Notes under the pieces: model-generated
The model's input: the letters and a program-made list of their open reading frames with translations, nothing else
Databases searched by the model: none
What the model was told of the DNA's origin: nothing
Translations under genes and position numbers: made by a program
Part shown: piece after piece, positions 1,485 through 46,990 of the stretch
Layout: each line of letters starts with the position of its first letter
Position numbering within the stretch: the stretch's first letter is position 1
IMG/VR virus record: IMGVR_UViG_3300033233_000005
Length of the DNA: 53,728 nt
Strand: one strand, 5' to 3'
DNA from: a virus
Lineage: Duplodnaviria; Heunggongvirae; Uroviricota; Caudoviricetes

Positions 1485-2573
1485 ATGGATCAGAATGTAG
1501 ACGTCGTCATCGATGGGCAGTATGGCAGTACTGGTAAGGGTTTAATCTGTCAGACCATAGCAGACAATTACAAGTTGGCGGTAACATGTAATGCTCCAAA
1601 TGCTGGGCACACTATCAGATGGGATGGGAGCCAAAATCCAGAGGGGCAATGGATGGGAAGGAAGACCTTTAAGGCTAGGCACGTCCCATCCTCTGTCCTC
1701 AACAAAGACTGTAAGTTAGCTATCGGTGCTGGTGCTTTGATTGGAATGGAGGTATTAGAGAAGGAACTTCAAGAATTACACAGTCTAGGTGTTGAGATTG
1801 AAGATAGACTGTATATTGACCCTCATGCTACTATGGTGCAGACTAGACATGTTAATGCAGAGCATGAAAAGAAAGAAGGTTCAGACATGTTTGATCGCAT
1901 TGGGTCCACTCGTGAAGGATGTGGACCAGCGTGGGCCGAGCGTGTACTGCGTCGTGGTGGGACTCAATTAGCTTATATGGAACCATATCTACAGAGGTTT
2001 ATTAGTAAAGAGCCAGTATCCCACATGATTAGATCTTACGATCGAGTTCTTCTAGAGGGTGCACAAGGCACCGGTCTGTCGAATATTCACGGGATCTACC
2101 CATATACCACATTTAGGGATACTACCGCATCTGGATTCGCATCTGCGGCTGGGGTTCCGCCACGTGCTATTAGAAATGTAATCATGGTGATCAGAACCTA
2201 TCCGATCAGAGTTGCTGGTATGAGCGGGCCAACTGGTGGTAAAGAGCTTGATTGGACATATTTCAGCAAGAGAGCCGGTAAAGAAGTGTCAGAGAGAACA
2301 ACTGTTACCAATCGGGTGCGTAGAATATTTGAGTTCTCTATGGACGATTTTAAACACGCGGTTATTCTGAATGGACCAAATATCATCGCTCTTAACTTCT
2401 TGAATTACCTTGATCCGAGCGATGAAGGGAAGACTGATTTTGACAAATTGGGATCTGTGTCCCGCAAGTTTATCGACGACATAGAGGCCGTGGCTCAAGC
2501 TCCGGTATTAATTATGAGCACGTCGGCTGATTCGGTGGTAGTCAGACCAGAATTACAGCCGATGCTGGCATGA
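1485..2573 (+). CDS. purZ: PurZ, N6-succino-2-amino-2'-deoxyadenylate synthase (PurA paralogue)
   Basis: PurA fold motifs PNAGHT, GST, LEGAQG, RTYPIRV, TTVT..RR; P-loop QYGSTGKG has Ser15 where PurA has Asp (GDEGKG); N304-F-L-N307 in place of the PurA TKLD; YPYTTFR. Confidence 0.88.
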   Translation: MDQNVDVVIDGQYGSTGKGLICQTIADNYKLAVTCNAPNAGHTIRWDGSQNPEGQWMGRKTFKARHVPSSVLNKDCKLAIGAGALIGMEVLEKELQELHSLGVEIEDRLYIDPHATMVQTRHVNAEHEKKEGSDMFDRIGSTREGCGPAWAERVLRRGGTQLAYMEPYLQRFISKEPVSHMIRSYDRVLLEGAQGTGLSNIHGIYPYTTFRDTTASGFASAAGVPPRAIRNVIMVIRTYPIRVAGMSGPTGGKELDWTYFSKRAGKEVSERTTVTNRVRRIFEFSMDDFKHAVILNGPNIIALNFLNYLDPSDEGKTDFDKLGSVSRKFIDDIEAVAQAPVLIMSTSADSVVVRPELQPMLA

Positions 2574-4643: not shown

Positions 4644-5438
4644 ATGAGTTGGTTAGAGTCTGAGAAAGGTTCAACACTCCCCGAGTATATTCTAAGGTTC
4701 AAAGCGGATGACAAGTTTACCATCCGTATGTTGGACAATAACCGTCCCGAACGGGTGTTCACCCACAGCACCAGGAATCTACGGAATCAGTTCGTAAAGT
4801 TCCTGTGTGTTGGGCCTAAGGCAGGGTGTACATTTTGTGCTACCAATAAGGAACGCGAAGTAGCACATGCGAAGAACAAGGATAAGCCGTTCCCGACCAA
4901 GCTGGATTACGTCAAGCCAGTATATGTGTATGAAAAAGATGCGGTCATGTTGCTGATCGGAGTTGAAGTGTGGCAACAGATTGACTTCATCGAGTCTGTG
5001 TCTGGCAACTTGTCCGATAAGGATATCGTTGTTCAGGCTAGACAACAGGATCGGTTGACCTATTTTGCCCAGGCCGCTGCCGTTGGTCCATTCAACAAGC
5101 AGATAGATAAGGCGCAGGCGAGTGAGTTGATGACCAAGTACACCGAATACCTACGTGGTAACATTAAGTCGGTAGACAATATCCCACAGCCACAGGTTTC
5201 TGCTACCGCATCTGCTGAACCAGCTGGTGCCGGTGCTGCAGAGATTGAAGTGAGTGGTGATTTGAAATCTGTGCAGGACAAGTTGCTGTTCATGGTTGGA
5301 GACAATATGGACACGCAAGCCCTGTCCAAGTGCTTTGACAAGTTTGCATCCGGTAAGAATAAGATTAAAGACTTGACTATAGACGAATGCAACAAGATCA
5401 TTCCTGCTTATCAGGAAATGACCAAGGCAAAGAAGTAG
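4644..5438 (+). CDS. ssDNA-binding protein, gp32-like with Zn site
   Basis: AGGAGG SD; TIRML..(H41)..C..CTFC..PVYVYE..MLL pattern of gp32-like OB proteins; next to recA. Confidence 0.6.
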   Translation: MSWLESEKGSTLPEYILRFKADDKFTIRMLDNNRPERVFTHSTRNLRNQFVKFLCVGPKAGCTFCATNKEREVAHAKNKDKPFPTKLDYVKPVYVYEKDAVMLLIGVEVWQQIDFIESVSGNLSDKDIVVQARQQDRLTYFAQAAAVGPFNKQIDKAQASELMTKYTEYLRGNIKSVDNIPQPQVSATASAEPAGAGAAEIEVSGDLKSVQDKLLFMVGDNMDTQALSKCFDKFASGKNKIKDLTIDECNKIIPAYQEMTKAKK

Positions 5439-5815: not shown

Positions 5816-6832
5816 ATGGGATTAGCTGATGATCTAAAGAAACTTCATGATAAGTGCGATATAGTGGTGCCTGAATATGAGGCAGTCAGTTCTGGTATCC
5901 TCGCACTAGATTTTGCTACCACCGTTCCTGGGATTCCGCGTGGTACGATTATCGATTTCTATGGGAAAGAGGGCCTCGGTAAAACCACCACAGCCTTAAC
6001 TCTGGTCGCTGAGAGGATTAAGAATGGTGAGCGGTGTGCGTATATAGACGTCGAACAGCGGTTAAATGATCAATTAATTAACATGAACATCCCAAACAGA
6101 GATTTATTTGAAGTATTTCGTCCTAAGGATGGCGACGCAGCCCTATTTCTAGTCACTTCGCTGGTGCAGCATCCAGAGATCAAGATGATAGTATTGGACT
6201 CAGTTGCTGCATTGGCATTTAAAGAAGTCATGGAAGACATAGAAGGTGAGGGAGTGCACGTGGCTATCGTATCAAGAAAATTGTCTCCATTCTTCCAGCG
6301 AGTAATGACACCGATCAGAGAAAATGGTTGTATCCTAGTCTGCATCAATCAGTTGAGAACCAAACCGATGCAGATGACTAGAGGTATAACCGAGACTCCT
6401 ACCGGAGGGATGGCCATACGTTTCTATGCATCCTTCATGATGAATATGACTCCAGAATCATTCGTCCGTGATGGTGACAATTTGGCTGGCCACAGGGTCT
6501 ACATTACCATGGACAAGAATAACTTTGGTCCTAAGGGCCGTAAGGCGTATATGACGATCATGTATGGTCAAGGTGTAGATAAGGTTAGGGATGTTATTGA
6601 ATGCGGACAGCAGGTTGGAATGATAAAGAAATCTTCCAGCTGGTATTACTATAAGCAGGGGACACCGGAAGAGATAAAGGCTCTAGGTGAAAACCAATTA
6701 GTAGAAAAGCTGTCTCCTATCCTAGATAAAGTGCAGGCTGAAATACTGGCGGCATGGAAAAATGAGAATCCGGACGACGCACCCAAAGATGCTCCAGCAA
6801 TAGAGGAACCTGTAAAGCCAGAGGATAAGTAA
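5816..6832 (+). CDS. recA: RecA/UvsX-like recombinase
   Basis: SGILALD, GIPRG, Walker A GKEGLGKTT, YIDVE, IVLDSVA, INQLR, TPTGG.A..FYAS. Confidence 0.95.
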   Translation: MGLADDLKKLHDKCDIVVPEYEAVSSGILALDFATTVPGIPRGTIIDFYGKEGLGKTTTALTLVAERIKNGERCAYIDVEQRLNDQLINMNIPNRDLFEVFRPKDGDAALFLVTSLVQHPEIKMIVLDSVAALAFKEVMEDIEGEGVHVAIVSRKLSPFFQRVMTPIRENGCILVCINQLRTKPMQMTRGITETPTGGMAIRFYASFMMNMTPESFVRDGDNLAGHRVYITMDKNNFGPKGRKAYMTIMYGQGVDKVRDVIECGQQVGMIKKSSSWYYYKQGTPEEIKALGENQLVEKLSPILDKVQAEILAAWKNENPDDAPKDAPAIEEPVKPEDK

Positions 6833-7997: not shown

Positions 7998-8347
7998 TGC
8001 CTCGCAGCAGGTATTACAGTCGGGATGGAAAACCGCTTACGCTTATAGAGTGGGCCAAAAACCTGGAGAGACGGTCAGATAGCGGTAGAAGAGTGGCTGA
8101 GGCTACTGTTCCAGGCAATTTTTGGGTGTCTACTGTATGGCTGGGTGTAGATCACAATTACCGTCGTTCTGGCCCACCGCAAATATTTGAAACTATGGTA
8201 TTTAGATCTCATAAAGAACTCCATGAGTTCGATTGTGTACGATATACAACAGAAACGCAGGCCCTAAATGGGCATATAATTCTGGTTAAGAAATGGTCGC
8301 AATGGTGGAGAGACGAGGACAAATGGGAGCTACTTAAGAAATCATGA
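7997..8347 (+). CDS. conserved phage hypothetical protein
   Basis: VSTVWLGVDHNY...GPPQIFETMVF is a motif I recognise from phage hypotheticals. Confidence 0.65.
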   Translation: MPRSRYYSRDGKPLTLIEWAKNLERRSDSGRRVAEATVPGNFWVSTVWLGVDHNYRRSGPPQIFETMVFRSHKELHEFDCVRYTTETQALNGHIILVKKWSQWWRDEDKWELLKKS

Positions 8348-9687
8348 AAATATATATAGACTCTCCATATTCGATACTGTCATTGGAGGTAAATGATAAC
8401 GTATCTGCCCTGGATGGATTAAAGAGAGATCTTACCGTGACTATAAAGAAGTTTACGGGCATGGGCAAGCCACAGCTAGACAGAGTATGTCTGATTATGC
8501 CTAATCTGGCGTTTCGCACGGGCTTATTGACCCGGATACGCAGGTTAGCTCCACTGCATGGGTTAGCCATTAGTGAAGAGATAGACAGACGCGCCATGCC
8601 CAAGATCGATAAATCTCTATCCGGTAAGAAGGTCGATCTGCGTGATTATCAGGAAGAGGCTGTAACCAAGATGCTGCAATATGATATGGGAGTGTTGTGC
8701 GCTGCTACTGGTTCCGGCAAGACCCATATGGCGGCTAATATGATCGCTAAGCGGGCTGTGCCCACTCTATTCCTGGTTCATACAAAGGAACTGTTATACC
8801 AGACTCAGAAGCGATTTACAGAACTGCTCGGGATGAAGATTGGAGCCATAGGCGATGGTGTGTTTGAGCCTGAACCGATCACCGTGGCCACCATCCAAAC
8901 CCTGTACAGCCAAGGCGTGAATCCAGGCATCAAACCGCAGATGGTGATAGTAGATGAGACGCATCATCTACCAGCCGATATGTTCTTCACTGTTACCAGC
9001 CTGTATCCAGTTCGATATATGTATGGATTGAGCGCCACTCCATACCGCCTGGACGGAGCCGATCTCATGATTGAAGCTGGGGCAGGACCGATCATCGTTA
9101 GTATATCGGTTTCCGATCTGATCAAGCGGAAGATATTGTGTAAACCAGTGATCAGGTTCATACCGATAGGTACGGAGACTTCGTATTCCAAGGCTCCCAA
9201 GCATTATGTGGTCAGGAAGCATATAGTAAATAATGAACAACGCAACAATATTATCGCTGTGGAAACCAAGAAGTGTGCCGATAAAGGGCAATCCGTCCTT
9301 ATCGCAGTAAATTGGACCGAACATGCTAAACAGATTGAGATAAAATTAAAAGCGTTAGAGGTAGATTGTGAGATATTGGAAGGGAAATCTCCGACATATG
9401 TCAGGCAGCGCATTCTAAAAGAATTGCAGAGCAAGAAGTTGAAGGTGATAATCTCAACCATCATGAAAGAAGGCGTAGATGTCCCTTCTCTAGACGTAGT
9501 AATTAATGCGGCTGGTGGATCGGATAGTATGCAGTTGATCGGTAGGGCATTGCGCAAGTCCGATGGTAAGGAAACCGCCACCATTATAGATTTCGTAGAC
9601 AACCAACATATCACTTTACTACAGGCATCTAAAAACAGGATGAAGCGTTGTCAGGCTGAACCAGAATTCCTAGTAATCGCGGCCTAA
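8344..9687 (+). CDS. SF2 DExH helicase, UvsW-like
   Basis: LRDYQ, ATGSGKT, VDETHH, GLSATP, KEGVDVP, QLIGRALR. Confidence 0.93.
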   Translation: MKIYIDSPYSILSLEVNDNVSALDGLKRDLTVTIKKFTGMGKPQLDRVCLIMPNLAFRTGLLTRIRRLAPLHGLAISEEIDRRAMPKIDKSLSGKKVDLRDYQEEAVTKMLQYDMGVLCAATGSGKTHMAANMIAKRAVPTLFLVHTKELLYQTQKRFTELLGMKIGAIGDGVFEPEPITVATIQTLYSQGVNPGIKPQMVIVDETHHLPADMFFTVTSLYPVRYMYGLSATPYRLDGADLMIEAGAGPIIVSISVSDLIKRKILCKPVIRFIPIGTETSYSKAPKHYVVRKHIVNNEQRNNIIAVETKKCADKGQSVLIAVNWTEHAKQIEIKLKALEVDCEILEGKSPTYVRQRILKELQSKKLKVIISTIMKEGVDVPSLDVVINAAGGSDSMQLIGRALRKSDGKETATIIDFVDNQHITLLQASKNRMKRCQAEPEFLVIAA

Positions 9688-9697: not shown

Positions 9698-10159
9698 GTG
9701 AAATTCGTCAGTTTATGGAGGGAGGAACCGGTACTTAAGGTAAAGCTTATATTTAGTAGCACTGTACCTACAACTAGTCCTCCTAAGACCAGGGTATTAG
9801 GCGACAAGGTATTTGGTGTCAAGTTGCCTGGTAACGATGTATGGTCTGTTATGAATATCAATGGGAACCGGTGGACTTTCATAAAACGGAGCAAAATGTG
9901 TGAAGGTCCGATAAATGGCAGGCACCGCTTTATCCGTAGCGATGGTGCCCTATTAAAGAGTGGAAGGCATGTTGGCGTAGATTGCATGTCTATACCCGAT
10001 GCCGTTAAAACTTTAAAGACTGTTGATCACCGTATCTTCTTTGATCCGTTCGCTATTACTAGGAACGGGGTGGGGGTGTCTTATCTTAAGCTCGAAGTAC
10101 CTAACGCCGCTAGCCAACTTGCACGTGACCGTAAGGATACAGGGGAGGCATTCATATGA
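9698..10159 (+). CDS. hypothetical protein
   Basis: AAGGAG SD with GTG start; overlaps the purB start. Confidence 0.65.
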   Translation: MKFVSLWREEPVLKVKLIFSSTVPTTSPPKTRVLGDKVFGVKLPGNDVWSVMNINGNRWTFIKRSKMCEGPINGRHRFIRSDGALLKSGRHVGVDCMSIPDAVKTLKTVDHRIFFDPFAITRNGVGVSYLKLEVPNAASQLARDRKDTGEAFI

Positions 10160-11301
10160 TTTCTGATCGATATGCAACTAAGATAGCCAGACATTGGTCA
10201 CCGGAAGAAAGGATTCAAACGTGGCTCAAGATTGAACTGCTTAATTTAAAAGCATATAGCCAAGAACACTATGAGAAAGCGTCTAAGGCGTTTAAGGATA
10301 TGTCCAACAAATATATAGCTGACCAGTCTAGATTGATAGAAGATAAGATCGGACATGAGGTTGAGGCATTCGTACAGTTCCTGAATCGGGTTTATCCAAC
10401 GGGTCTGTGGCATAAGGGGCTGGCATCATCTGATCTGGTTGAGTGCTCTAATGCGGTGGCCATGAATAAAGCTCTTCTGGAAATAACAGACGAGAAATAT
10501 CTACTTACCAATGGTCTTAGGTCATTGATGGTGACTTACAAAGATGCTCCAGCCCATGGATATACGCATGGTCAGAAGGCTGAGCCCATAACATGGGGAT
10601 TAAGATTCTTCGTATGGGCGGAGCAGCTAGAATACTTCCCTATGGTGTCAGTACGGGGCAAAATGACTGGTGCCGTGGGCACTGGGATCGTAACTGCTCC
10701 AGGTCTAGTCAGAGCGGTAGTTAATGAACTGCATATAGATATGTCAGCAGCGGCTACCCAAATAGTTCCAAGACATCAGCTATGTGGTACCCTAGATCAG
10801 ATTAGTGGATTGGCTATGGCTTTAGAGAAAATCTCAAACGATATGCGGATGCTATACACTCTGGATCAACTCCACATAGACAATATGCCTATTGGATCTA
10901 GTTCTATGCCTCATAAGGTTAATCCATACGAATTGGAACGCTTGATCGGTATGTGTAAAATGATCATGTCTATGGTAGATTGCATCAATAGGACCAATGC
11001 GGATGGTTGGCTAGAACGGGATCTAGTGCACTCTAGCGTAGAGCGTGAATTCCTGCCGGTCATATGCAATCATACATACTATGTGGTGAATAGATTGTCT
11101 GTGATACTAGGTAGATCACGATTCCGTCTGGCTACACCAGATGATTTGATATCACAATGGTCCTCAGTTAAATTGGCCGACATGCTGACACACGAAACAG
11201 ATAGAAAAGCGGCCAGAGAAGCGGCAAAGAGTGTGACCATAGAAGAATCGGTTGAGTATCTGTCTAGAATGAAAATCGCTGTGGATAAAATACTTGGATG
11301 A
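10156..11301 (+). CDS. purB: adenylosuccinate lyase
   Basis: Fumarase-superfamily signature GSSSMPHKVNP (10894-10926); HKGLASSD; GYTHGQKAEPITWG; KMTGAVGT; TQIVPR; LERDLVHSSVER. Confidence 0.92.
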   Translation: MISDRYATKIARHWSPEERIQTWLKIELLNLKAYSQEHYEKASKAFKDMSNKYIADQSRLIEDKIGHEVEAFVQFLNRVYPTGLWHKGLASSDLVECSNAVAMNKALLEITDEKYLLTNGLRSLMVTYKDAPAHGYTHGQKAEPITWGLRFFVWAEQLEYFPMVSVRGKMTGAVGTGIVTAPGLVRAVVNELHIDMSAAATQIVPRHQLCGTLDQISGLAMALEKISNDMRMLYTLDQLHIDNMPIGSSSMPHKVNPYELERLIGMCKMIMSMVDCINRTNADGWLERDLVHSSVEREFLPVICNHTYYVVNRLSVILGRSRFRLATPDDLISQWSSVKLADMLTHETDRKAAREAAKSVTIEESVEYLSRMKIAVDKILG

Positions 11302-11738: not shown

Positions 11739-12484
11739 GTTCAGCAGGAGATCCGATGGGAATATTTCAAGCCAACCATAAATGGGGTGAATGGGGTACC
11801 CCTACTCCAGATCGCACTGATAGATTACCAAAGCAATTTAGAGACTCTGTCCTGTCTTATATCAAGGATATTATAGATAGTAAGATGTGTGAGGTTGTAG
11901 TATATCCAATGAAAGCCGTATCTGGCACTAAAATGCCGGTAATGTTAAGCATCAGTGTGATGTATAGCCATTTTGAGATTATGATAATGGATAATACCAC
12001 CTTTGTCATTCATTTCAATGTCACTGAAACTCCTAAATCGCCAATAATGATGACTTCTGGTGCCATTAGAGATCGATATGATGTGCAATGTGATGATCCC
12101 CTGGTATTGCAGGAAATTGTGTCAGCTGGTGATAATGCCAAAGAAATATTAAAGTGGTTGTCTGTCCTGGTTGATTCTCCATGTAAGGTTATTCAGGCTG
12201 TGCGCATTACTCCACAACAGGGCTTGGAAAAGCGGTGGTTGGAAGAAGCAGCAAAACAGGATACGTGGACTACGACCACTACTACGACTCCATACATACA
12301 TCACAAATACGTACCAAATTCAAACAGCATCACTTGGGGTAGTGAAGAGCATGCTAAGATAACTTTCGGCACAGGTGATTACGGCAAAGACATTTTGAAA
12401 AATCAAGAACCGGGGTGGATAACAAATCAATATAATAAATTGGTTAATGTGGTTAGTCGTCTAAAATCGACTACAATCAAATGA
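11729..12484 (+). CDS. hypothetical protein with a Thr run
   Basis: 251-aa ORF containing WTTTTTTTP. Confidence 0.65.
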   Translation: MAIGSAGDPMGIFQANHKWGEWGTPTPDRTDRLPKQFRDSVLSYIKDIIDSKMCEVVVYPMKAVSGTKMPVMLSISVMYSHFEIMIMDNTTFVIHFNVTETPKSPIMMTSGAIRDRYDVQCDDPLVLQEIVSAGDNAKEILKWLSVLVDSPCKVIQAVRITPQQGLEKRWLEEAAKQDTWTTTTTTTPYIHHKYVPNSNSITWGSEEHAKITFGTGDYGKDILKNQEPGWITNQYNKLVNVVSRLKSTTIK

Positions 12485-12771
12485 GGGTGTGGCCTTACGA
12501 TCTCAGAGTAGCTGGTTTAACATTCAAGGTAAAGAGTATGGATGAAGTTGACTCAGATGCTATTGAATGCAGACGTGAACCTACCAATGAATTCGATTCA
12601 AGAGCCGTGGCAGTATATTGTATATATACTGGCAAAAAAGAGCCAAAACATGTTGGATATATACCAAAAGAGATTGCTCGAAACATACCTGATGAAAAGC
12701 TGCCATGTAATGGCCAGGTAGTATGGAAAACCGATGAGATCGGTAGATTTGGAATGAAGATTGCAATATGA
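12481..12771 (+). CDS. stand-alone HIRAN domain protein
   Basis: CRREPTNEFDSRAVAV...HVGYIP. Confidence 0.85.
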   Translation: MRVWPYDLRVAGLTFKVKSMDEVDSDAIECRREPTNEFDSRAVAVYCIYTGKKEPKHVGYIPKEIARNIPDEKLPCNGQVVWKTDEIGRFGMKIAI

Positions 12772-13375: not shown

Positions 13376-15769
13376 GTGGACCTAAAAGAATTAAAGATTA
13401 GAATACCGCTTGAGAAATTAGCCGACATGCTAGGCATCAAGGTCAAAGACTCCGGTAAGAACGCCGTAGCGTTGTGTCCGTTCCACAAGGACACTACCCC
13501 ATCTTTTACCATCGACAAGGCTAGGCAGATAGCCCGCTGCTTCTCTTCATCCTGTGCTGATCTAGGTGTAATTGACCATATCAAGCTAATAAAATTATAT
13601 GAGCATCTGGACGAAGACGATGCCGTAACTAGATTCTATGCCCTAGCAGGGGAAGAGCGTCCTGCGGACTCATCACAAGAGATATTGCACAAAATGTTAT
13701 CTCTGATCCATCAGAATATAACGATGGATGCGCCATTGAAATTCTTTCAGAATCGTGGCATTACCTTGGAAGCTCTGCAGAAACTAAAGGTCGGATATTC
13801 TCCATCAGCACAGTGGTTTAAGGATCAAATTAAGGATGTGCCACCGGACGAGTCGGCTAGATTGGAATTCTTTAGATCAGAAATGTTTGACAATGCCATT
13901 ATATATCCAGTGTATGATAGCTTGGGTAGAATGGCTGGATTTAGGAGCAGACCGTTCAAAGGCACAGCGAAGTATATAGCCAATTCCGGTGACTTTAAAT
14001 TCAAGGCCACTAGAGTCTATGGTATGCACTTAATTAAACATAATCGTCAGATCGTTCTGGTAGAAGGCCCCAATGATGTATTAGGATTGCTCTCTGCTGG
14101 AGTGTCGAATGTCGGTGGCCTGATGGGTTCTCATATGGAAGGCGTCGACAAGTATCTATGGAATCGTGGATTCAATGATGTAGTGTTTATAGCAGATGGT
14201 GATGAAGCGGGTGCTATGGCGATGATCAAAGCTCCACCACTTATTCGGGTGACCAAGATACCAATTGCTGGTGTGGACCCTGATGACTATGCACATCAAC
14301 AGGGCCTGTTGCCAGTTGTTAATTTGATCAATTCAGCTAAATTTCCCATTGAGATCAAATTGGAATCTAAGCTAAGCAAGATCCCAGCCGGTTTGACTGG
14401 TAAGGGGATGCTATTGAAATCCATTGCTCAGGATATATCTGATGGATTACCGTCGATATTGGTTGGTTTAGTTCAAGACTATGTAGCGACAGCCCTTGGA
14501 ATATCGCGAGAGGATGTAGCTAAGGTATTCGATCAAGTTGATTTGGATACCACGCGGCTGGAGAATAGAATGATAGCACACATGGCTAGTAATGGGGAAA
14601 CTTCTCCAGAGATTAGAACCAAAGTGATCCCACAGATGTTCTTTGATTCTAAGGCCCGTGCCCAATATAAACAGATACTGGATGGCTTGACCGTAACCGA
14701 TGTAACATCAACAATCACTGCATTCACGGAAGCCGACCTCGCGCAGTTTGTAGACCTAGCCACTAGGCGGCAGCTGCGTGTAGCTTTGAAGAAATCTTCC
14801 AACGACATAGCCAACATATCGATCCCCCTAGAAACCACATTAGAAAAGACCACTATTCAGATGTCGAATCTGACTATAGATGACGTTACGGTACTGTCAT
14901 CCGGTGAGGCATTGAGAGCAGAATTGGCCGACATTGAGGAACGGGCCAAGAACCCCGGACAATTGCTAGGCTTATCGTTTGGTCCTAGGTTCCCCAAAAT
15001 GGATCAAATTCTATTCGGACTTAGACCAAATAACATGTATATCGTAGCGGCTACGACCGGTATGGGTAAATCCAATCTAGCCTTGGAATGGGCCATACAT
15101 ATGTCGCACAATGATAACGTACCCGTGCTGTGGGTATCACTAGAAATGTCTGCTAGGGAGATGGCTGCAAGAAGACTTGCCAAGATAACTGGTGTAAGCA
15201 TGACTAGTATCCTCAGAGCAGAGTTAACTGTTGAACAGACTAAATTACTAAAGGATCAAGCAATCAATCATGCCTTAACGCCATTTTATGAGGCATATTG
15301 CGGCGGAATCACCATCCATCAGATCGTATCGCTGATCAGAAAGTACAAGATTACCAAGGATATCAAGGCAGTATATATAGACTACATCCAGCTGGTTCAA
15401 GGTGGACCTGAGGATAGGGGCAGTTACGAGAGAATAGGTTATATATCTGGAATGCTCAAGAACCAAGTTACTATGAGTAAATCGATAGGCATCCCGGTTG
15501 TAGCCATATCTCAGTTAACTAGACAGGCCGCTAAGGTAGAAGTGCCAACGGCAGAAAATGTAGCGGAATCGTATAAAATAAGTCAGGATGCAGATGCCTT
15601 CCTTGCTATTAAGCAGAGAACTGAATTTGAGATTGAGGAAGACAAGCTCCAGGGTAGGAATTATGGCAATATGTTACTAAATATAGACAAGAATAGAGAA
15701 GGTCCATCCAAGCAGATAGTGGGACTGATATTTAACAAAGACAATCTATCAATCAAAGAGGTGGTTTAA
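13376..15769 (+). CDS. DNA primase-helicase fusion (CHC2 Zn finger, TOPRIM, DnaB-like)
   Basis: CPFHKDTTPSF...CFSSSC; LVEGPND, FIADGDEAG; AATTGMGKS, IDYIQL, ISQLTR, DKNREG. Confidence 0.93.
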   Translation: MDLKELKIRIPLEKLADMLGIKVKDSGKNAVALCPFHKDTTPSFTIDKARQIARCFSSSCADLGVIDHIKLIKLYEHLDEDDAVTRFYALAGEERPADSSQEILHKMLSLIHQNITMDAPLKFFQNRGITLEALQKLKVGYSPSAQWFKDQIKDVPPDESARLEFFRSEMFDNAIIYPVYDSLGRMAGFRSRPFKGTAKYIANSGDFKFKATRVYGMHLIKHNRQIVLVEGPNDVLGLLSAGVSNVGGLMGSHMEGVDKYLWNRGFNDVVFIADGDEAGAMAMIKAPPLIRVTKIPIAGVDPDDYAHQQGLLPVVNLINSAKFPIEIKLESKLSKIPAGLTGKGMLLKSIAQDISDGLPSILVGLVQDYVATALGISREDVAKVFDQVDLDTTRLENRMIAHMASNGETSPEIRTKVIPQMFFDSKARAQYKQILDGLTVTDVTSTITAFTEADLAQFVDLATRRQLRVALKKSSNDIANISIPLETTLEKTTIQMSNLTIDDVTVLSSGEALRAELADIEERAKNPGQLLGLSFGPRFPKMDQILFGLRPNNMYIVAATTGMGKSNLALEWAIHMSHNDNVPVLWVSLEMSAREMAARRLAKITGVSMTSILRAELTVEQTKLLKDQAINHALTPFYEAYCGGITIHQIVSLIRKYKITKDIKAVYIDYIQLVQGGPEDRGSYERIGYISGMLKNQVTMSKSIGIPVVAISQLTRQAAKVEVPTAENVAESYKISQDADAFLAIKQRTEFEIEEDKLQGRNYGNMLLNIDKNREGPSKQIVGLIFNKDNLSIKEVV

Positions 15770-16581
15770 TGGCTAATCCTATAGGACCGATCAATTCTGG
15801 AACCACAGCCTCTAGTCCATACATTGCTATCTCACCATATACGGTATCAACCGGGTCTCCGTGGTCTACCTCTACTACAGTAACATCAACTGGGTCTATA
15901 GCTGAATGGCCTACAATAAGAGTATTCGATAATATCGTAGTTAGCTTTAAAAGTTTCTTGAATGACATCACAACAGTCAGGGATGAGAATGGCATGCTTA
16001 TCTGTGATGAATTAAGAACCATATTTATATATAAAGAGCCATCCATTATAGATATGCCAAAATTGAGGCAGCCTGGATACAAAATGGTTGATATCGGTAA
16101 AAACTCTCCTTATGCTACATCGTTTACAGTAAAAGATTTCGTTAAGATAATGAATACTGTGATGATCTATTGTAAGGATCTGGCATTCGGAATGCCACAC
16201 CGCAAGTATGATTCAGTCGGATTCGATCTGCATTGTTTAAAAGATGCTGTGGTGGAACCGGGTGAATTCATGGATGTAGAAACTGGGGTACATTGTGCAT
16301 TCCCATCACATATTTGGGGTTTGCTGGTATCGCGTAGTAGCATATTTAAGAAACGCCTGATAGTGAATACAGGCATCATAGACCCTGGATTTCAGGGTGA
16401 ATTATTCGCGTGTGTCTATAATGCAGGTAAGGAACAGTTTAAAATAGAACGTGGAGATAGATTAGCGCAGTTAATACCCATGCAGGACGTCCCTATGATA
16501 GGAGTCCAACAAGCGTATGGGTTGGATGAATTTCCCGCCACTAACCGTGGCACCAATGGGTTCGGATCAACGGGTAAATAA
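15769..16581 (+). CDS. dut: trimeric dUTPase-fold protein with about 130-aa N-terminal extension
   Basis: Five motifs: VGFDL, SRSS, GIIDPGFQGE, GDRLAQL, RGTNGFGSTG. Confidence 0.85.
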   Translation: MANPIGPINSGTTASSPYIAISPYTVSTGSPWSTSTTVTSTGSIAEWPTIRVFDNIVVSFKSFLNDITTVRDENGMLICDELRTIFIYKEPSIIDMPKLRQPGYKMVDIGKNSPYATSFTVKDFVKIMNTVMIYCKDLAFGMPHRKYDSVGFDLHCLKDAVVEPGEFMDVETGVHCAFPSHIWGLLVSRSSIFKKRLIVNTGIIDPGFQGELFACVYNAGKEQFKIERGDRLAQLIPMQDVPMIGVQQAYGLDEFPATNRGTNGFGSTGK

Positions 16582-16822: not shown

Positions 16823-17032
16823 GTGAAATATTTCGTAGTTACACCTGCGTACGAGTCCGGAGGTTCGGAATATGAGCCTCCGGACTACGGCAGTGACGTA
16901 GCAGAGATTGAAGCTATCAATAGAAGGCTGGCTAAAGCAGTAGGACTTAAAGCACTAAGAAAGATGAATAGTAGATGGGTAGACGATTTAGGAAACAATC
17001 CATTTAAGGGATTAAAGGTGTATAGAGCATGA
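16823..17032 (+). CDS. hypothetical protein
   Basis: GTG start directly after the previous stop; overlaps the dnaE start. Confidence 0.6.
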   Translation: MKYFVVTPAYESGGSEYEPPDYGSDVAEIEAINRRLAKAVGLKALRKMNSRWVDDLGNNPFKGLKVYRA

Positions 17033-20016
17033 ACGATACTTATGTATCCCTTCACAATCACACGTTCTATTCAACCCTAGATGGTTTAAATAAGCCGATA
17101 GAGCTTGCCCAGACTGCCAAAGAAATGGGTTCTCCAGCCATAGCTATCACTGACCATGGAACTCTAGCTGGCATACCGGAATTCTTTGAAGCATGCAGGA
17201 AGACCGGAGTGAAGCCAATATTGGGTAATGAAATGTATTCAGTCCCTGATATAACAATTAGAGAAATCCTGATCACCCCGACAAAGAAACAATCGCGATC
17301 TGGCTACCATCTAACACTGTTAGCTAAAAATGCTACTGGATTTAAGAATTTGGTGGCTTTGAATAACATAGCATTCATGCGTGGGTTTTATTATTATCCT
17401 AAAATAGATTGGAAAGCACTGCTTGAGCACAAAGAGGGTTTAATAGTATTGTCAGCTTGTGCTTCGTCCGAATTGAGTCAATATTCAATCATGGACAGGG
17501 CACACAACGTTGCACCCAAATTCAAGGAAGCATTCGGTGACGATTATTATATGGAATTGATGGACAATTATATGGTCAAAGAATTACAACGTGGATTAAA
17601 TGAGAAGTTCTTAGAAGCAGCCAAGAAATTCAATATCAAATGTGTGGCTACCAATGATGCTCATTACCTAAAACAGGATATGTATGATATACATGATGTC
17701 GCCACCTGTATACAACAAAAGAAAACTATATCTACACCAGGTAGATTAAAATACGACGGCTTCTATCATCTAAAATCGATGACTGAAATGATCAAGGTAT
17801 TCCCACGTGAAGCCATCAATAATACTTTGGAAGTGGCAGAAAAGATAGAAGCATTCGATATCTATGACAAGACTATGCGATTGCCCCTGATGATGGGTGA
17901 AGATCCCGATGTATTATTGCGGATGTTGGCTACGGATGGATTAAAAAAGCGCAATCTTACGGGAGCGGTCTATATAGATCGCTTGAATAGAGAATTGGAA
18001 GTCATAGCCAAACTAGGATTGTCGGCATATTTTTTGGTAACCAAAGACATCATCGATAGTTCAATCAGATCCATCGGCTGTACAATGGCTTGGGGTAGAG
18101 GCTCATCTGCCTCTTCTTTAGTGTGCTATGCGCTAAGGATAACCGATGTCGACCCGATCAAGAGTGGCTTGCTGTTTGAACGGTTTGTAAATCCTCACCG
18201 CCCTGACTGGCCCGATATCGACATAGACGTGCCGCAGCAACACCGGCAGGAAGTCATAGCCAAGATATTTGAAAAATACGGGATTGATAAGGTAGCCCAC
18301 ATATCTACCATGCATAACTTGCGTCCTAAGATGCTGGTTAAAGACCTATGCAAGACGCTTGAATTAGACGCGGTTGATGCGGCCAAGCTAGCGGGGGCCG
18401 TTCCATTCGAAGCCACTGGCTGGGATGATTTGAAGGATAATAAGAAATTCACGGACATCGTAGATACTATGCCCGATAGTAATAAATTGATGGGATATTT
18501 GCAGTATCTGCTTGGTCTACCCAAGCATTTGGGTACCCATGCATCAGGGATCATCATTTCTAGTGACCCGATTACCGATCGTCTACCGATCAGGATGGAT
18601 GATACCAAAATGGTGTCTCAGTACACCATGCATCACGTCCATAAATTCGGGTTTATGAAATTCGACATCCTGGGATTAAAGACCTTAGATATCATATTCG
18701 CTGCGGCTAAGGATGCCGGTATAGACCTCAAGAATATACCGATGGAAGACAAGAAGACTTTCGATCTGATAGGTGAAGGTCGAGTGATAGGCGTGTTCCA
18801 GCTTGATGGATCACATTCCTATATCAAGCTATGCCGAGATATGAAACCAATCAAGTTTGATGAAATATGCCATATCGTTGCTCTACACCGTCCTGGAATA
18901 ATGGATTCTGGACAATTAACAGTGTATCTGGACAGACGCGCCGGTAGAATACCGGTCAAATATATACATCCTGACCTGGAACCGATATTAAAAGAAAATT
19001 ATGGCATCTGTATCTTCCAGGAAGACATGATGAAAATGGCACAAGTGTTTGCCAACTTCTCTTTAGCTGAGGCCGAGGATTTGCGCAAGGCCATCGCCAA
19101 GAAAGATCCTGAATTGATGAAACTGCAGAGTGCCAAGTTCACTGAACGAGCTACTGCATTGGGTAGAGACAAGGATAGTATCGCGTCCGCTCTAAGCATG
19201 CTAGAAGCGTCTGCTAGGTATTCATGGAATAAGGCGCATGGCTATGGCTATGGGCATATCACATATGCCTGTGCCTACCTGTCGGCTAATTATCCATTGC
19301 AGTTTTTCACCCATCTAATCAATATGGCATCAGAGGAAGACAAATCTACGTATCTGACTGAGGCGATGGCGCGTGGACTTAAGATCCTACCCCCTGATGT
19401 TAATAGATCCAATAAGAATGCTACTATCGATGGTGATGCTATCCGGTTGGGTCTGACTTCGATCAAGGGAATAGGCGACGCAATAGCAGACAAGATTATC
19501 AAGAACAGACCCTATGATAAGATCGACAAATTAAAAGCTACCGTCAATAAAACGGCTATCACCCTATTGTACTCAGTCAAGGCTGTAAGCACAGTTGGTG
19601 ATGCAGAAACTTGGGACCCCGGATTAAAGGCGGATGAATCTACCCTACTCGGTATATCACTCAGCAATAATCAAGCTGATTACGATAAACTGATCAAGGT
19701 AGCTGGGGCCGATCCAGTTCATACGATTGCTGGGATAGGGACTGCTATAGTTAAAATATTAACAGTTAAAGAAGTGACAGACAAATTAAAGAGAAAGATG
19801 GCTTTCTTAACTGGTGTAGATGTGCATGGTCCCAAACATGACATGGTTATGTTTGCTACGGAATATCAAGAGATGAAACCAAAACCCGGTGAGACATATA
19901 TTATGACCTTACGTAAGACACCAATAGGTAGCATGCAAATTAGGGGTTTGATATCGACCAAGGAATACATAGAACGGTATAATAAAAATCCTGCAAATGC
20001 CGAGAAGATCACATAG
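17029..20016 (+). CDS. dnaE: DNA polymerase III alpha subunit (family C)
   Basis: PHP domain HNHT..STLDG, TDHG, GNE, YHL, TNDAHY; GRGSSASS; catalytic PDIDID; KFDILGL; HhH LGLTSIKGIG; C-terminal OB fold. Confidence 0.97.
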   Translation: MNDTYVSLHNHTFYSTLDGLNKPIELAQTAKEMGSPAIAITDHGTLAGIPEFFEACRKTGVKPILGNEMYSVPDITIREILITPTKKQSRSGYHLTLLAKNATGFKNLVALNNIAFMRGFYYYPKIDWKALLEHKEGLIVLSACASSELSQYSIMDRAHNVAPKFKEAFGDDYYMELMDNYMVKELQRGLNEKFLEAAKKFNIKCVATNDAHYLKQDMYDIHDVATCIQQKKTISTPGRLKYDGFYHLKSMTEMIKVFPREAINNTLEVAEKIEAFDIYDKTMRLPLMMGEDPDVLLRMLATDGLKKRNLTGAVYIDRLNRELEVIAKLGLSAYFLVTKDIIDSSIRSIGCTMAWGRGSSASSLVCYALRITDVDPIKSGLLFERFVNPHRPDWPDIDIDVPQQHRQEVIAKIFEKYGIDKVAHISTMHNLRPKMLVKDLCKTLELDAVDAAKLAGAVPFEATGWDDLKDNKKFTDIVDTMPDSNKLMGYLQYLLGLPKHLGTHASGIIISSDPITDRLPIRMDDTKMVSQYTMHHVHKFGFMKFDILGLKTLDIIFAAAKDAGIDLKNIPMEDKKTFDLIGEGRVIGVFQLDGSHSYIKLCRDMKPIKFDEICHIVALHRPGIMDSGQLTVYLDRRAGRIPVKYIHPDLEPILKENYGICIFQEDMMKMAQVFANFSLAEAEDLRKAIAKKDPELMKLQSAKFTERATALGRDKDSIASALSMLEASARYSWNKAHGYGYGHITYACAYLSANYPLQFFTHLINMASEEDKSTYLTEAMARGLKILPPDVNRSNKNATIDGDAIRLGLTSIKGIGDAIADKIIKNRPYDKIDKLKATVNKTAITLLYSVKAVSTVGDAETWDPGLKADESTLLGISLSNNQADYDKLIKVAGADPVHTIAGIGTAIVKILTVKEVTDKLKRKMAFLTGVDVHGPKHDMVMFATEYQEMKPKPGETYIMTLRKTPIGSMQIRGLISTKEYIERYNKNPANAEKIT

Positions 20017-21061
20017 AATACTGGTTACAGCTGATTGGCACATCGGAGACTATCGTGGACCTGTTGTAAATGGGCTAAATGGTAGACTTATCGATGTTCG
20101 CAATCGTATATCAGAATTAATAGAGTACGCGGTTAGCAATTCCATAGAAGCGATCGTATTCTGTGGAGACATGTTCCGGGATAAGCATCCTGGAATGATC
20201 CACCTAAAGACAGCGGCCTCTATTATAAAAGAGATTAGCAGTAAACAGATCAAGTTTATTGCTATCCCAGGCAACCACGATGTCAGCAAATTAAGGATGC
20301 ATGCCCATGCCCTGTCTGCCTTCAAACCATTGACGCCAAATAATGTTGTGATAGCTGATCAACCTGGCGTGTTTGAATTAGACCTCAACACCAGGTTGCT
20401 GTTATTCCCCTATATGTCGTCCCCGCAAGACAAGCCATTAAAGGAATTTCTTAAAGACGCCAGGAAGGATGATATTCTGGTTATGCACGGTACTATCGAA
20501 GGTAGCTTAATGACTAAATTGACTGACTATGAGATACACGACGAAGATACTATATTCATGGACACTATCAGTAAAGTTAGAGGTGTGTTCGCCGGTCATA
20601 TCCATGACAATCAGCATTATGGTAAAGTATGGTATCCGGGTTCTTTGGAAAGGCTCAGTTTTGATGAGGAATACAGCGACAGGGGATTTTTGGATATTAC
20701 TATCGGTGACACGATCGAATCTAAATTCATTCCTGTAGTGGCCAGAAGGCTTGTTACCATACACGCAGAAGATATTAACGACGTAGAAACCGGTAAACTC
20801 AATATCAAAGATGCCGTAGTGAGAGTAGTTGGGGCCGATAAACAGAATGTCAGTGATATCAGAAGATTATTAACTGATAAGGGCGTATATTATATTACGA
20901 ACATACAGACCTTAGGTGTAGAATTTAGAGAAGCACCAAAGACCGGTTTAGGAGTACCTGATCTGGTCAAACGTTATGCTCAAAAGATTGGGTATAAGGG
21001 AGACATGGACAATGCCACAAGAGCCATCCTTGAAGTCCTCAACAGTATCCCCACAGCTTGA
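19997..21061 (+). CDS. sbcD: SbcD/Mre11 metallophosphoesterase nuclease
   Basis: TADWHIG, CGDMF, PGNHD, MHG, AGHIHD, YPGSLERLSFDE. Confidence 0.92.
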   Translation: MPRRSHRILVTADWHIGDYRGPVVNGLNGRLIDVRNRISELIEYAVSNSIEAIVFCGDMFRDKHPGMIHLKTAASIIKEISSKQIKFIAIPGNHDVSKLRMHAHALSAFKPLTPNNVVIADQPGVFELDLNTRLLLFPYMSSPQDKPLKEFLKDARKDDILVMHGTIEGSLMTKLTDYEIHDEDTIFMDTISKVRGVFAGHIHDNQHYGKVWYPGSLERLSFDEEYSDRGFLDITIGDTIESKFIPVVARRLVTIHAEDINDVETGKLNIKDAVVRVVGADKQNVSDIRRLLTDKGVYYITNIQTLGVEFREAPKTGLGVPDLVKRYAQKIGYKGDMDNATRAILEVLNSIPTA

Positions 21062-21192: not shown

Positions 21193-21387
21193 ATGGCAAT
21201 GCCAAGAAATGATATAACAATTGAGGAAGTCAATGCATGCATTGCTCATGTGGTAAAAACTGTAGCTAAAACCAAATTGATCAATTATACCAAGCAAGTG
21301 GTGTTTAAGGCCATGTCCGATAGCATTCAAATGGTCACGTTGGCCCCTGACTTATATCCGGATGGTCCTGATTATGAAAATTCATAA
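21193..21387 (+). CDS. hypothetical protein
   Basis: GGAG SD; overlaps the sbcC start. Confidence 0.5.
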   Translation: MAMPRNDITIEEVNACIAHVVKTVAKTKLINYTKQVVFKAMSDSIQMVTLAPDLYPDGPDYENS

Positions 21388-23377
21388 GTTAGCTCTGACC
21401 AATTTTCTTTCTTATAGAGACTGCGTGTTAGACCTGTCTCAGATAACAGCGTGCTCTATACTCGGGCCTAACGGTTCTGGCAAATCGTCTATAGCGGAAG
21501 CCATCATATGGGTATTATTCGGGCATGCCAGACTGCCAAATAAAGAATTGGTGCATACTGGCGAGACTAACATGGCCATATCGATGGATTTCTCTATGGA
21601 TGAGAATGAATACCACGTGAAACGTGGATACGATTCTGGTACGCTATCTCTAACAATGACAGAGAATGGTGTGCAGATAGCCAGCACCGTTATGCAGGGT
21701 TCAGTAGCGCTGGCTAAGATCGTTGGAGCTTCTAAGGAATTGATATCTCAGTCTATTGTTGTGCAACAGGGACAATTGTCTTCATTTGTCATGTCTACCC
21801 CCACCCAAAGGCGCGATCTAATAGCGTCCATGTTAGGTCTGGATAGGTTTGTCACAGCATGGGATATAGCAAAAGAATCACTTAGAATCATGAACACCAC
21901 CGTGTTGACCCACGATCACACATTGATGGTGGTAAAGAGTGAATTGTCCAGATACCCAGATGTATTCACTATCGATTCAACTATTAGGAAACTAACCGAT
22001 GAAATAACTCCAGTCACGGCATCTATATCTGCTCTGGTTATTAAAAAAGAACAGTTACTAGCACAACATACAGAAGCAAGAGATAGAATAGTAGAATACA
22101 ATGCTCAATCCGACGATCTTATGCGACAGATAATAGATTCTCGTAATCTGTTTGATGCTAATATAATCAGGCTGCAACAGGCTGTTGATAACGCGCAGGA
22201 GCAGATTGATAGTAGACCATCATTGGAAATCGAACGAACTGATTTTAGCAAGGAATTAGTCACTGCCAACCAGGTCATAGATGTCATGCGTGATCTTAGA
22301 CAACAGATCACGCAATGCGAAACTGCTATTAAAGAGGCAAGGATTAAGGTATCTATAGTCTCTGGTATTGAGAACGTATGCCCATTGTGTGGTACTCAGA
22401 TAGAAGCCGATAAATGGCGCTCAATACTAAATAATATGGAATCGTCGATGTCGCAGTTAATTTCTGAATTAAATAGTTATACTGCTAAGATGGCGCAGAT
22501 TCCATCTATTAGAACTGTGAATAGTATATCAACCGATATAACCACAGTGGAATCTAAATTAGCTAAGACGTATGCAATAGAATCATCCATGGGAGTATTA
22601 ACCATTGAATTGGACAAGATTAAACAGCAGAAATATGTGGCGATCGGCATGCTTGAAGCCAAGTTAAAATCAACTGCGGAGGGTATATCCAGATTAAAAG
22701 AAGCAATGCATATAGACCTAGATCTTATGGACAAGGAACTAGTAGAATTAAATAATAAACACGCTTCTTTATCTGATGAATTGATTAAATGGGCTGGTAC
22801 AAAACAAGCCAGAGAATCTCAGGAGAAAATGGCCACTAACACGGATACCCTTTTGAAGTTATCGAAGGAACGCATACCAGAAACTGAATTTATCAGTGCA
22901 GCATTGTCTCCTGCTGGGATCCCGCTTATGCTTATAGATCATTATATTCCTCTCATAGAAGAGAAATCGAAAGAAATACTGCATGTGATCTCTGATGGAC
23001 AAATGCAATTGCAGCTAAAGGTAGTGGAGGACAAGTCCAAGAAGGGTATAGATGTATTAGCTGGTGTTGGACATTTACGTCCGATACGTTCTTTATCTGG
23101 TGGAGAACAGACAAGAGTAAGTTTGGCCCTGCGTGTAGCTTTGAGTCAGATTCTACATGAAATGACCAATTGTAGATTTGATTGTTTATTAATCGATGAG
23201 CCAGAGTATCTAGATGAGCAAGGCATCACACAATTTATATCCGCAGTAAATGGACTACGTTCCATGTTTCCACAGATATTTGTAATGAGTCACTTAGATC
23301 AAGTGAAACACGCATTCAATCAGCATATACTTGTTCAGAAAACTGATAATATCAGTTTTGCTGATGTAGTGGTATAA
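21374..23377 (+). CDS. sbcC: SbcC/Rad50 SMC-like ATPase
   Basis: NFLSY, GPNGSGKSS, VVQQG, Zn hook CPLCG, LSGGE, LLIDEP, VMSH. Confidence 0.93.
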   Translation: MKIHKLALTNFLSYRDCVLDLSQITACSILGPNGSGKSSIAEAIIWVLFGHARLPNKELVHTGETNMAISMDFSMDENEYHVKRGYDSGTLSLTMTENGVQIASTVMQGSVALAKIVGASKELISQSIVVQQGQLSSFVMSTPTQRRDLIASMLGLDRFVTAWDIAKESLRIMNTTVLTHDHTLMVVKSELSRYPDVFTIDSTIRKLTDEITPVTASISALVIKKEQLLAQHTEARDRIVEYNAQSDDLMRQIIDSRNLFDANIIRLQQAVDNAQEQIDSRPSLEIERTDFSKELVTANQVIDVMRDLRQQITQCETAIKEARIKVSIVSGIENVCPLCGTQIEADKWRSILNNMESSMSQLISELNSYTAKMAQIPSIRTVNSISTDITTVESKLAKTYAIESSMGVLTIELDKIKQQKYVAIGMLEAKLKSTAEGISRLKEAMHIDLDLMDKELVELNNKHASLSDELIKWAGTKQARESQEKMATNTDTLLKLSKERIPETEFISAALSPAGIPLMLIDHYIPLIEEKSKEILHVISDGQMQLQLKVVEDKSKKGIDVLAGVGHLRPIRSLSGGEQTRVSLALRVALSQILHEMTNCRFDCLLIDEPEYLDEQGITQFISAVNGLRSMFPQIFVMSHLDQVKHAFNQHILVQKTDNISFADVVV

Positions 23378-46604: not shown

Positions 46605-46605
46605 C

Positions 46606-46989: not shown

Positions 46990-46990
46990 T

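Follow-up and report, generated by a model that had tools for sequence, protein, structure and literature searches.

The window analysed here, 53,728 nucleotides of IMG/VR virus record IMGVR_UViG_3300033233_000005, corresponds to positions 22,550-76,277 of a 163,875-bp metagenome contig (ENA ERZ27248239 k141_1314216) and carries a gene for a candidate PurZ-type synthetase together with a gene for DnaE, a family C DNA polymerase. Full replacement of a Watson-Crick base is, to our knowledge, known in nature only from phages whose DNA carries 2-aminoadenine (Z) instead of adenine, and the polymerases of these phages are sought as tools for writing ZTGC DNA. Every long open reading frame (ORF) of the window lies on the + strand, as do all window genes and domains given below, and the first half forms a replication and nucleotide module in the order PurZ, RecA, helicase, PurB, primase/helicase, Dut-like protein and DnaE. 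The dnaE gene (17029..20016) encodes a replicase candidate of 995 aa and, as the original prediction stated, the sole polymerase of the window: the ORF is intact, all PHP metal-ligand motifs are present, and the profile scans and gene tables of the window revealed no second polymerase family. That prediction regarded the pairing of a Z pathway with a DnaE, rather than with the family A polymerase DpoZ or a PrimPol, as a new architecture of Z replication. Apart from possible passing mention in three 2021 Science papers, no DpoZ-DnaE or aminoadenine-Pol III pairing is described in the literature that we searched, yet the pairing is not unique to the window and recurs in a cultured Bacillus phage and at least 17 contigs. 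What is new here is an altered pocket loop in the clade of phage DnaEs linked to PurZ.

The contig was covered from record position 1 to 141,629 of 163,875 bp (86%), assembled through exact-protein look-ups. Profile scans against Pfam and PHROGs included the whole replication half of the window and the first ten ORFs of its structural half, and gene tables with precomputed Pfam hits were used for the remainder of the window and for the contig up to position 141,629.

DnaE and its nucleotide pocket

DnaE matches PHP (PF02811, E 6e-43), DNA_pol3_alpha (PF07733, E 2e-71), DNA_pol3_finger (PF17657, E 2e-45) and HHH_6 (PF14579, E 7e-14), all well over the cut-offs and in the order PHP, palm/thumb core, fingers and helix-hairpin-helix. 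Its closest solved relative is Mycobacterium tuberculosis DnaE1 (5LEW/7PU7; E 4e-156), and the protein aligns end to end with this enzyme (5LEW) and with the Thermus (2HPI) and E. coli (4JOM) Pol III alpha subunits. The PHP domain (17050..17667, from alignment to M. tuberculosis DnaE1 and Taq alpha) may act as an intrinsic 3'-5' proofreading exonuclease: its nine metal ligands (H9, H11, D18, H43, E68, H94, C144, D210 and H212) are all present and are invariant in four PurZ-linked DnaEs. In the palm or Pol III alpha core (17917..18675; PF07733, residues 297-549), the catalytic aspartates D396 and D398 (P-D-I-D-I-D) and D546 (K-F-D-I-L-G-L), equivalent to E. coli D401, D403 and D555, occupy invariant columns, and a helix-hairpin-helix DNA-binding domain follows at 19375..19560 (HHH_6, residues 783-844). 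The protein ends about 165 residues before E. coli alpha, without the C-terminal tau-binding region, and a regular-expression search of DnaE gave no match to the beta-clamp motif Q-x-x-L/M-x-F. The clamp motif and the tau-binding end mark the DnaE of a cellular replisome, not the fold. The gene tables, which span 141 kb of the contig, list no clamp or clamp-loader family and no separate epsilon-type exonuclease.

The most distinctive part of the protein is a helix-loop-helix loop (19216..19239; from translation and column statistics) that reads R730-Y-S-W733-N-K-A-H737 in place of the standard G-Y-G-F-N-K-S-H, or A-R-Y-S-W-N-K-A-H with the preceding residue included. In E. coli numbering, Gly753 is replaced by Arg (R730), Gly755 by Ser (S732) and Phe756 by Trp (W733), and Y731, N734, K735 and H737 are retained. 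Cryo-electron microscopy of E. coli Pol III at 2.4-2.7 Å, described in a 2026 preprint, has shown that Tyr754 stacks on the incoming base and, with Phe756, forms the roof of the nascent base-pair pocket in the ternary complex; that Tyr754, Phe756, Asn757 and His760 all come within 4 Å of the dNTP, as Gly753 does of the templating nucleotide; and that His760 is a steric gate in this conserved loop, which is shared by DnaE and PolC alike (10.64898/2026.06.29.735100). A second finger motif is also altered (18997..19026), reading N-Y-G-I-C-I-F-Q-E-D rather than T-x-G-x-x-x-Y-Q-E-Q as a result of T657N, Y663F and Q666D. The T, Y and Q of this motif are conserved in 97%, 86% and 96%, respectively, of 75 phage DnaEs without PurZ and are changed in the subclade of the window.

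Alignment of 82 phage DnaEs, seven PurZ-linked and 75 PurZ-less, placed all columns that strongly separate the PurZ-linked proteins in the fingers (T657, Y663, Q666, K752 and position 733). The strongest was position 733: six of the seven PurZ-linked DnaEs have Trp there, whereas 99% of the 75 others have Phe and not one has Trp. The PHP domain of the same 82 proteins showed no change specific to PurZ. The original prediction had proposed to compare finger and PHP residues with those of PurZ-negative phages, on the idea that Z is told from A either by the polymerase or its PHP site, or by the nucleotide pool alone. Both alternatives remain plausible. The comparison revealed changes in the fingers, in both the loop and the Y-Q-E-Q motif, and the idea of discrimination by the PHP domain, although still possible, was left without a sequence signature since that domain has no PurZ-specific change. 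Among the best 120 homologues of the finger region from 5.8 billion proteins, Trp occurred only in the window protein and four of its closest relatives. Phe occurred in two further close relatives and in every one of the 109 more distant homologues whose loop could be located.

Co-occurrence of the Trp loop with PurZ

The link was then tested blind, with a DNA pattern that encodes Y-x-W-N-x-x-H and three anchor residues further downstream. IMG/VR gave 31 matches, 18 of them within DnaE genes. Applied to 185,579 species genomes of bacteria and archaea, the pattern matched just two real DnaE genes and no chromosomal bacterial dnaE. Both of the latter genes are on phage-like contigs of 40-50 kb that had been binned into metagenome-assembled genomes (MAGs), and each contig has a PurZ in which Ser takes the place of the catalytic Asp of PurA (Ser-type); in the one control genome checked, the chromosomal PurA has Asp. 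These Trp-loop contigs, L264 (49.9 kb) and L270 (40 kb), were binned with Clostridia and Fibrobacter, respectively, a weak hint that hosts are found in these groups.

With the window counted, a Ser-type PurZ is present in 18 of 21 records with a Trp-loop DnaE. The three records lacking it are fragments rated 28%, 50% and 73% complete, and every Trp-loop record rated at least 90% complete has the enzyme. By comparison, none of 12 phage DnaE records with a Phe loop, comprising ten whole records (four of them 98-100% complete) and two that carry an Asp-type PurA with PurB, has a Ser-type PurZ (Fisher p = 1e-6, uncorrected for shared descent). The IMG/VR records L133 and L169, Phe-loop DnaE phages with canonical Asp-type PurA and PurB, represent purine synthesis by phages that lack the PurZ signature and provide a natural control group.

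Here the Trp-loop DnaE clade, to which the window DnaE belongs, is defined by the loop (A/G/S)-(R/K/A)-Y-x-W-N-x-x-H and by grouping into a single clade once the loop columns are excluded. In E. coli numbering, its members have Arg or Lys for Gly753, a residue with a side chain for Gly755 and Trp for Phe756. In trees built on the core region, the Trp-loop DnaEs fell on one side of a branch with a support of 75 when all columns were used. After removal of the loop and Y-Q-E-Q columns, a single-clade tree was 8.7 log-likelihood units better than the free tree (approximately unbiased test, p 0.60). The Trp loop thus probably arose once, in a deep, phage-only clade whose subclades are only about 30-37% identical. 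The PurZ proteins of the same phages are scattered over the PurZ tree: some lie on basal branches, some on the PurZ0 side, and the window PurZ itself sits at the base of the classical PurZ group (support 95). This indicates that the link between loop and PurZ does not stem from one recent co-transfer. The retention of Trp and PurZ through the whole depth of the clade, the change of near-invariant pocket residues and the scatter of the PurZs argue against hitch-hiking. Since basal PurZ branches are occupied by Trp-loop phages, this DnaE lineage could be the source of phage Z-DNA, although we do not press the idea of an ancestral pairing because one long PurA branch alone provides the root of the PurZ tree. 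Within the Trp-loop group, records L117, L165, L190 (also G003), L206 and L211 have a DatZ-like HD hydrolase in addition to a Dut-like gene, so helper sets mix within the group.

In our reading, the altered loop adapts a family C polymerase to the replication of Z:T DNA and adds to the effect of dATP depletion, and these comparisons tip the balance slightly towards a functional link between the Trp loop and Z replication. Several observations weigh against such a link. The cultured phage vB_BpsS-140 combines PurZ with a Phe-loop DnaE outside the Trp-loop clade, so the loop is not required, and two close DnaE relatives within the subclade of the window itself (P0005 and P0008) read R-Y-S/A-F-N-K-S-H, with Phe. 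Because the Trp-loop DnaEs best fit a single clade, the association possibly reflects one ancestral event and the Fisher test overstates the independence of the records. The 2-amino group of Z faces the minor groove, and a residue of the base-stacking roof is no obvious reader of it. Short-read assemblies cannot reveal Z, and 22 kb of the contig (record 141,630-163,875) lie outside our coverage. For DpoZ, no single residue or structural element accounts for selectivity, and backtracking with excision at the weaker A:T ends has been proposed instead (PMC8599892).

Much of this evidence bears on a different explanation, which we hold to be possible without favoring it, namely that selection is made by the nucleotide pool alone. 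The DnaE would then have no preference between dATP and dZTP, like the PrimPol of cyanophage S-2L; the Dut-like, nucleoside deoxyribosyltransferase (NDT)-like and deaminase proteins described below would remove dATP, PurZ and PurB would supply dZTP, and the Trp loop would be a neutral or unrelated marker of a lineage that gained PurZ early. Phage S-2L dispenses with a Z-specific polymerase (PMC8065100, PMC10201439), and Z enters the chromosomal DNA of E. coli carrying the S-2L Z genes (PMC8342488), which shows that dZTP is usable by a family C replicase in living cells whose pools have been altered. Pool selection alone is also consistent with the Phe loops of vB_BpsS-140, P0005 and P0008, with a single origin of the Trp type and with the position of the DutZ-like gene, which is adjacent to dnaE in nearly all relatives. 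It does not readily explain why three pocket positions that are near-invariant in bacterial and phage DnaE and in PolC change jointly only in a lineage with changed base-pair chemistry, nor why Trp and PurZ are retained jointly down to about 30% DnaE identity and in PurZ lineages throughout the PurZ tree.

The PurZ gene set and the probable replicase

The PurZ-type 2-aminoadenylosuccinate synthetase candidate (1485..2573; Pfam Adenylsucc_synt) contains the motif G-Q-Y-G-S-T-G-K-G, in which Ser replaces the catalytic Asp13 of PurA, and branches within the phage PurZ tree. Further along the module, a PurB-like adenylosuccinate lyase (10156..11301; Pfam Lyase_1) is a candidate for the second step of dZMP synthesis and is 29% identical to the PurB-like protein of Streptomyces phage Galactica (E 2e-29). 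The gene before dnaE encodes a Dut-like protein of 270 aa (15769..16581; Pfam dUTPase), a candidate dATP/dGTP pyrophosphatase, which consists of an N-terminal extension of about 140 aa without a recognised fold and a C-terminal dUTPase fold. Related phages likewise have a Dut-like gene immediately upstream of dnaE. This domain is closest to DutZ of Gordonia phage Ghobes (43% identity, E 5e-29), an enzyme that hydrolyses dATP and dGTP to the monophosphates (PMC12884076). As judged from this gene content, the ~164-kb phage very probably makes dZTP and depletes dATP, with the DutZ-like enzyme probably standing in for DatZ and MazZ.

Elsewhere on the contig, an operon at record ~116.8-120.7 kb (L011:15628-19495) encodes a 410-aa protein, a DUF6899 protein, an NDT-fold protein (weak PF05014 match) and an adenosine-deaminase-family protein, and may serve the removal of adenine nucleotides in this PurZ phage. 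Neither the NDT-like protein nor the N-terminal part of the Dut-like protein has BLAST similarity to DmtZ of Ghobes. Upstream of the window, the contig carries genes for a dCMP deaminase, a DNA ligase and RNase HII, and a tRNA island.

Single-sequence queries of IMG/VR with PurZ found nothing, and alignment-based queries were used instead. Most of the best 80 Ser-type PurZ loci retrieved have PolA within 10 kb, and three have DnaE and no PolA: G001 (103 kb), G003 (38 kb, with direct terminal repeats) and G004 (49 kb, 91% complete). A search centred on DnaE added two further records with PurZ and DnaE. In all, a Ser-type PurZ occurs with DnaE in cultured Bacillus phage vB_BpsS-140 and in at least 17 IMG/VR or MAG contigs. 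The order PurZ, RecA, primase/helicase, Dut and DnaE is shared by vB_BpsS-140, G003 and G004, and G001 has the same genes. Two sets of candidates were set aside as lying outside this group: Flavobacterium phage MaF61 (168 kb, with PurA and PurB), which has a sliding clamp, T4-like structural genes and a 447-aa enzyme of PurA length, and jumbo IMG/VR contigs with a Ser-type PurZ (L051, L052, L067, L072, L087 and others), in which PF07733 has no match. Six IMG/VR records (L042, L046, L050, L058, L062 and L093) encode Ser-type PurZ proteins that reach 529-563 aa because about 170 aa, including a P-loop (G-x-x-x-x-G-K-S/T), are added at the N-terminus. They form one clade in the PurZ tree (support 99), and the extended proteins look like a kinase-PurZ fusion.

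Bacillus phage vB_BpsS-140 (MH884512, DSM 29700) gave the best tblastn match among cultured phages to the window PurZ (E 8e-47). Its genes are arranged as in the window (purZ, recA, helicase, primase/helicase, dut-like and dnaE); its DnaE differs from the window DnaE in carrying the standard Phe loop, and the two PurZ proteins share 34% identity. No PolA was found in the 55-kb record. The DnaE of this phage (L001:31820-35427) is in two overlapping ORFs, a PHP part of 363 aa and a polymerase part of 852 aa, in a stretch left unannotated in the feature table; the split may be genuine or may come from a frameshift or a PacBio RSII error. The authors of the phage genome, who listed the pieces of dnaE, drew no connection to the purA gene, and according to their restriction table the DNA was not cut by DraI, PstI, HindIII or BamHI and was fully cut by EcoRI (PMC6375668). 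In 38 kb of the sequence there are 17, 4, 6 and 3 sites, respectively, for the four enzymes that failed to cut. The pattern fits a modified adenine; it is not diagnostic for Z, because dZ-substituted PCR DNA resisted EcoRI fully or partially (PMC12944874). The link between this resistance and the purZ gene of the phage appears to have been drawn by nobody.

These data also bear on whether there is Z in the DNA at all. A Ser-type PurA relative, PurB, a Dut-like protein and a deaminase could serve ordinary salvage or other nucleotide chemistry next to an ordinary phage replicase, and both the full cleavage of vB_BpsS-140 DNA by EcoRI and the failure to find DatZ and MazZ in 141.6 kb of the contig agree with this. 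We consider it improbable. The Asp13-to-Ser change present in the window protein is found in 100% of 147 phage sequences of the PurZ group in a published tree (PMC12884076), the protein branches inside the phage PurZ tree, and the Dut domain encoded before dnaE is 43% identical to DutZ of Ghobes, a characterised dATP- and dGTP-hydrolysing enzyme. In addition, the DNA of the syntenic vB_BpsS-140 escaped four restriction enzymes despite the presence of their sites.

The original prediction took as its premise that described Z phages use PolA/DpoZ or, in S-2L, a PrimPol, and the literature agrees: all ZTGC phages except S-2L possess PolA (PMC8342488), which is the sole polymerase family known to have shifted towards Z, with the question raised of whether others did (PMC10201439). 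It also proposed a search for polA, datZ and mazZ in the rest of the genome and named a DpoZ as the contrary finding; none of the three turned up in 141.6 of the 163.9 kb. Specifically, tblastn with four DpoZ/PolA, three PrimPol, two DatZ and one MazZ queries identified no PolA/DpoZ, replicative PrimPol, DatZ or MazZ in record 1-141,629 (best E 0.04). A DatZ match at record 74,395-74,709 (E 0.049) was judged to be due to chance. The contig gene tables (141.6 of 163.9 kb) contain no family A or B polymerase and no PF00476 match. Outside the window and downstream of it, at record ~83.1-86.6 kb (L006:11188-14723), an ATP-dependent DNA ligase gene (526 aa) is followed by a gene for a protein with LigD_Prim-Pol and LigD_N domains (652 aa). 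DnaE is thus the only replicative-type polymerase seen, and not the only polymerase fold. Because the LigD-type protein is fused to the LigD phosphoesterase domain and adjoins an ATP ligase, its layout is that of end-joining repair rather than of a replicase; the contig gene tables show no Ku gene to accompany this split LigD-like module, and the protein does not resemble the S-2L, Wayne or Galactica PrimPols in sequence.

The genomic context makes dnaE the probable gene for the replicative polymerase of the ~164-kb phage. That another enzyme fills this role, be it a DpoZ-type PolA or other polymerase encoded in record 141,630-163,875, the LigD-type PrimPol or the host replisome, with DnaE as an accessory, is in our view very improbable. 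Such a scheme could draw on the end of coverage at position 141,629 and on the presence of the LigD_Prim-Pol gene itself. It is countered by the end-joining layout of that gene and its dissimilarity to known phage PrimPols, by the position of dnaE between the primase-helicase and Mre11/Rad50 genes, and by the absence of PolA from all nine related PurZ and DnaE genomes checked (vB_BpsS-140, G001, G003, G004 and five Trp-loop records rated 100% complete).

The module contains several further genes. A 264-aa protein (4644..5438), to which no family was assigned and which has no Pfam or PHROG match, has blastp homologues between PurZ and RecA in G003 and G004. The RecA-like recombinase (5816..6832; Pfam RecA) is syntenic in vB_BpsS-140, G001, G003 and G004, and is followed by a superfamily 2 (SF2) helicase (8344-9687). 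A HIRAN protein is encoded at 12481-12771, between the PurB-like lyase and a DnaG-type primase fused to a DnaB-type helicase (13376..15769; Pfam Zn_ribbon_DnaG, DNAG_N, Toprim and DnaB_C), which is also syntenic in the relatives. Directly downstream of dnaE there is an Mre11-like phosphoesterase gene (19997-21061; Pfam Metallophos) and then a gene for a Rad50/SbcC-like ATPase (21362-23377; Pfam SMC_N and AAA_23), and the module with these genes also contains a ribonucleotide reductase gene. Packaging and structural genes occupy the window from 27336 onward. Within this region, a 71-nt direct repeat (46601-46671 and 46986-47056; 79% identity) lies at the starts of two adjoining genes (46606-46989 and 46991-47707), which suggests a tandem duplication with a common N-terminus.

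Proposed pathway and relation to known Z systems

In the pathway that we propose, the Dut-like enzyme would convert dGTP to dGMP and dATP to dAMP, as DutZ does; PurZ and PurB would turn dGMP into dZMP; and host kinases would raise dZMP to dZTP. The NDT-like and adenosine-deaminase-family proteins encoded elsewhere on the contig may drain adenine nucleotides. DnaE, on templates primed and unwound by the adjoining primase-helicase, would then replicate the genome with dZTP opposite T, and the Trp-loop pocket would either favor Z:T or compensate for its altered stacking and stability. The intact PHP exonuclease could act as a second filter by excising weaker A:T termini, as proposed for DpoZ. From these comparisons we infer the presence of Z in the DNA, the specificities of the enzymes and any preference of DnaE for Z over A.

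Taken together, these elements permit a further, tentative proposal: that the Trp-loop DnaE is the family C counterpart of DpoZ, and as such the first pocket outside family A, alone or with PHP proofreading, to have shifted from A to Z, in a lineage that may be where phage Z-DNA arose, with PolA phages gaining PurZ later. We offer this joint reading as a speculation that is more doubtful than the functional link on which it builds. The pairing seen in the window, in a cultured Bacillus phage and in about 20 metagenomic genomes would represent a third solution to Z replication, one using a bacterial-type replicase, in addition to the two known from the literature searched, namely a PolA that selects Z and a PrimPol that does not and is combined with removal of dATP. 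The three substitutions in the loop roofing the nascent base pair are offered as a candidate determinant. If the loop tunes base choice, it bears on how base pairs are checked by family C replicases, which are the main replicases of bacteria and targets of antibiotics; if it does not, this would be a second natural case in which control of the pool alone suffices for a Z genome.

Among the known systems, cyanophage S-2L also lacks PolA, and its exclusion of adenine, like that expected here, leans on nucleotide-pool enzymes. S-2L differs in using an archaeo-eukaryotic primase (AEP)-type PrimPol with DatZ (HD) and MazZ (MazG-like), where the window has DnaE and a dUTPase-fold enzyme. The window system is not of the S-2L type because no replicative PrimPol, DatZ or MazZ was found in the 141.6 kb. 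By sequence similarity, the helper set of the window (DutZ-like, PurB and NDT fold) most resembles that of the PurZ0-type phages Wayne and Ghobes, which have PurZ0, DutZ, DmtZ and DpoZ-1 (PMC12884076): the window contig shares with them a Dut-like enzyme and a protein of the NDT fold, and with Ghobes also a PurB of phage origin. The differences are the P-loop, which is G-S-T-G-K-G, as in classical PurZ, rather than G-S-E-A-K-G, the absence of PolA from the 141.6 kb, and the lack of DmtZ similarity in the Dut-like N-terminus and the NDT-like protein. M. tuberculosis DnaE1 and Thermus Pol III alpha share the domain order and the nine PHP metal ligands with the window DnaE, which is shorter at 995 aa, has neither the tau-binding region nor the clamp motif, and has the loop R-Y-S-W-N-K-A-H where the cellular enzymes have G/D-Y-G/A-F-N-K-S-H.

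A further known system is DpoZ, the family A polymerase of phiVC8-like and Wayne-like phages. The window DnaE, with the Pol beta-like palm of Pol III alpha in place of a Klenow fold, belongs to family C and is therefore not a member of DpoZ; furthermore, a preference for Z is a measured property of DpoZ (PMC8599892) and a hypothetical one of the window DnaE. Nevertheless, each is a phage replicase, predicted as such in the window, with its own 3'-5' exonuclease (here the candidate PHP domain), and each is encoded in the same module as PurZ and the enzymes that remove dATP, which for the window are predicted ones. DpoZ is a subfamily of its own that occurs exclusively in PurZ phages, a likeness to the Trp-loop clade, and just as the window DnaE is altered in its pocket loop, DpoZ has an unusual substitution in its dNTP-binding motif B (PMC10201439).

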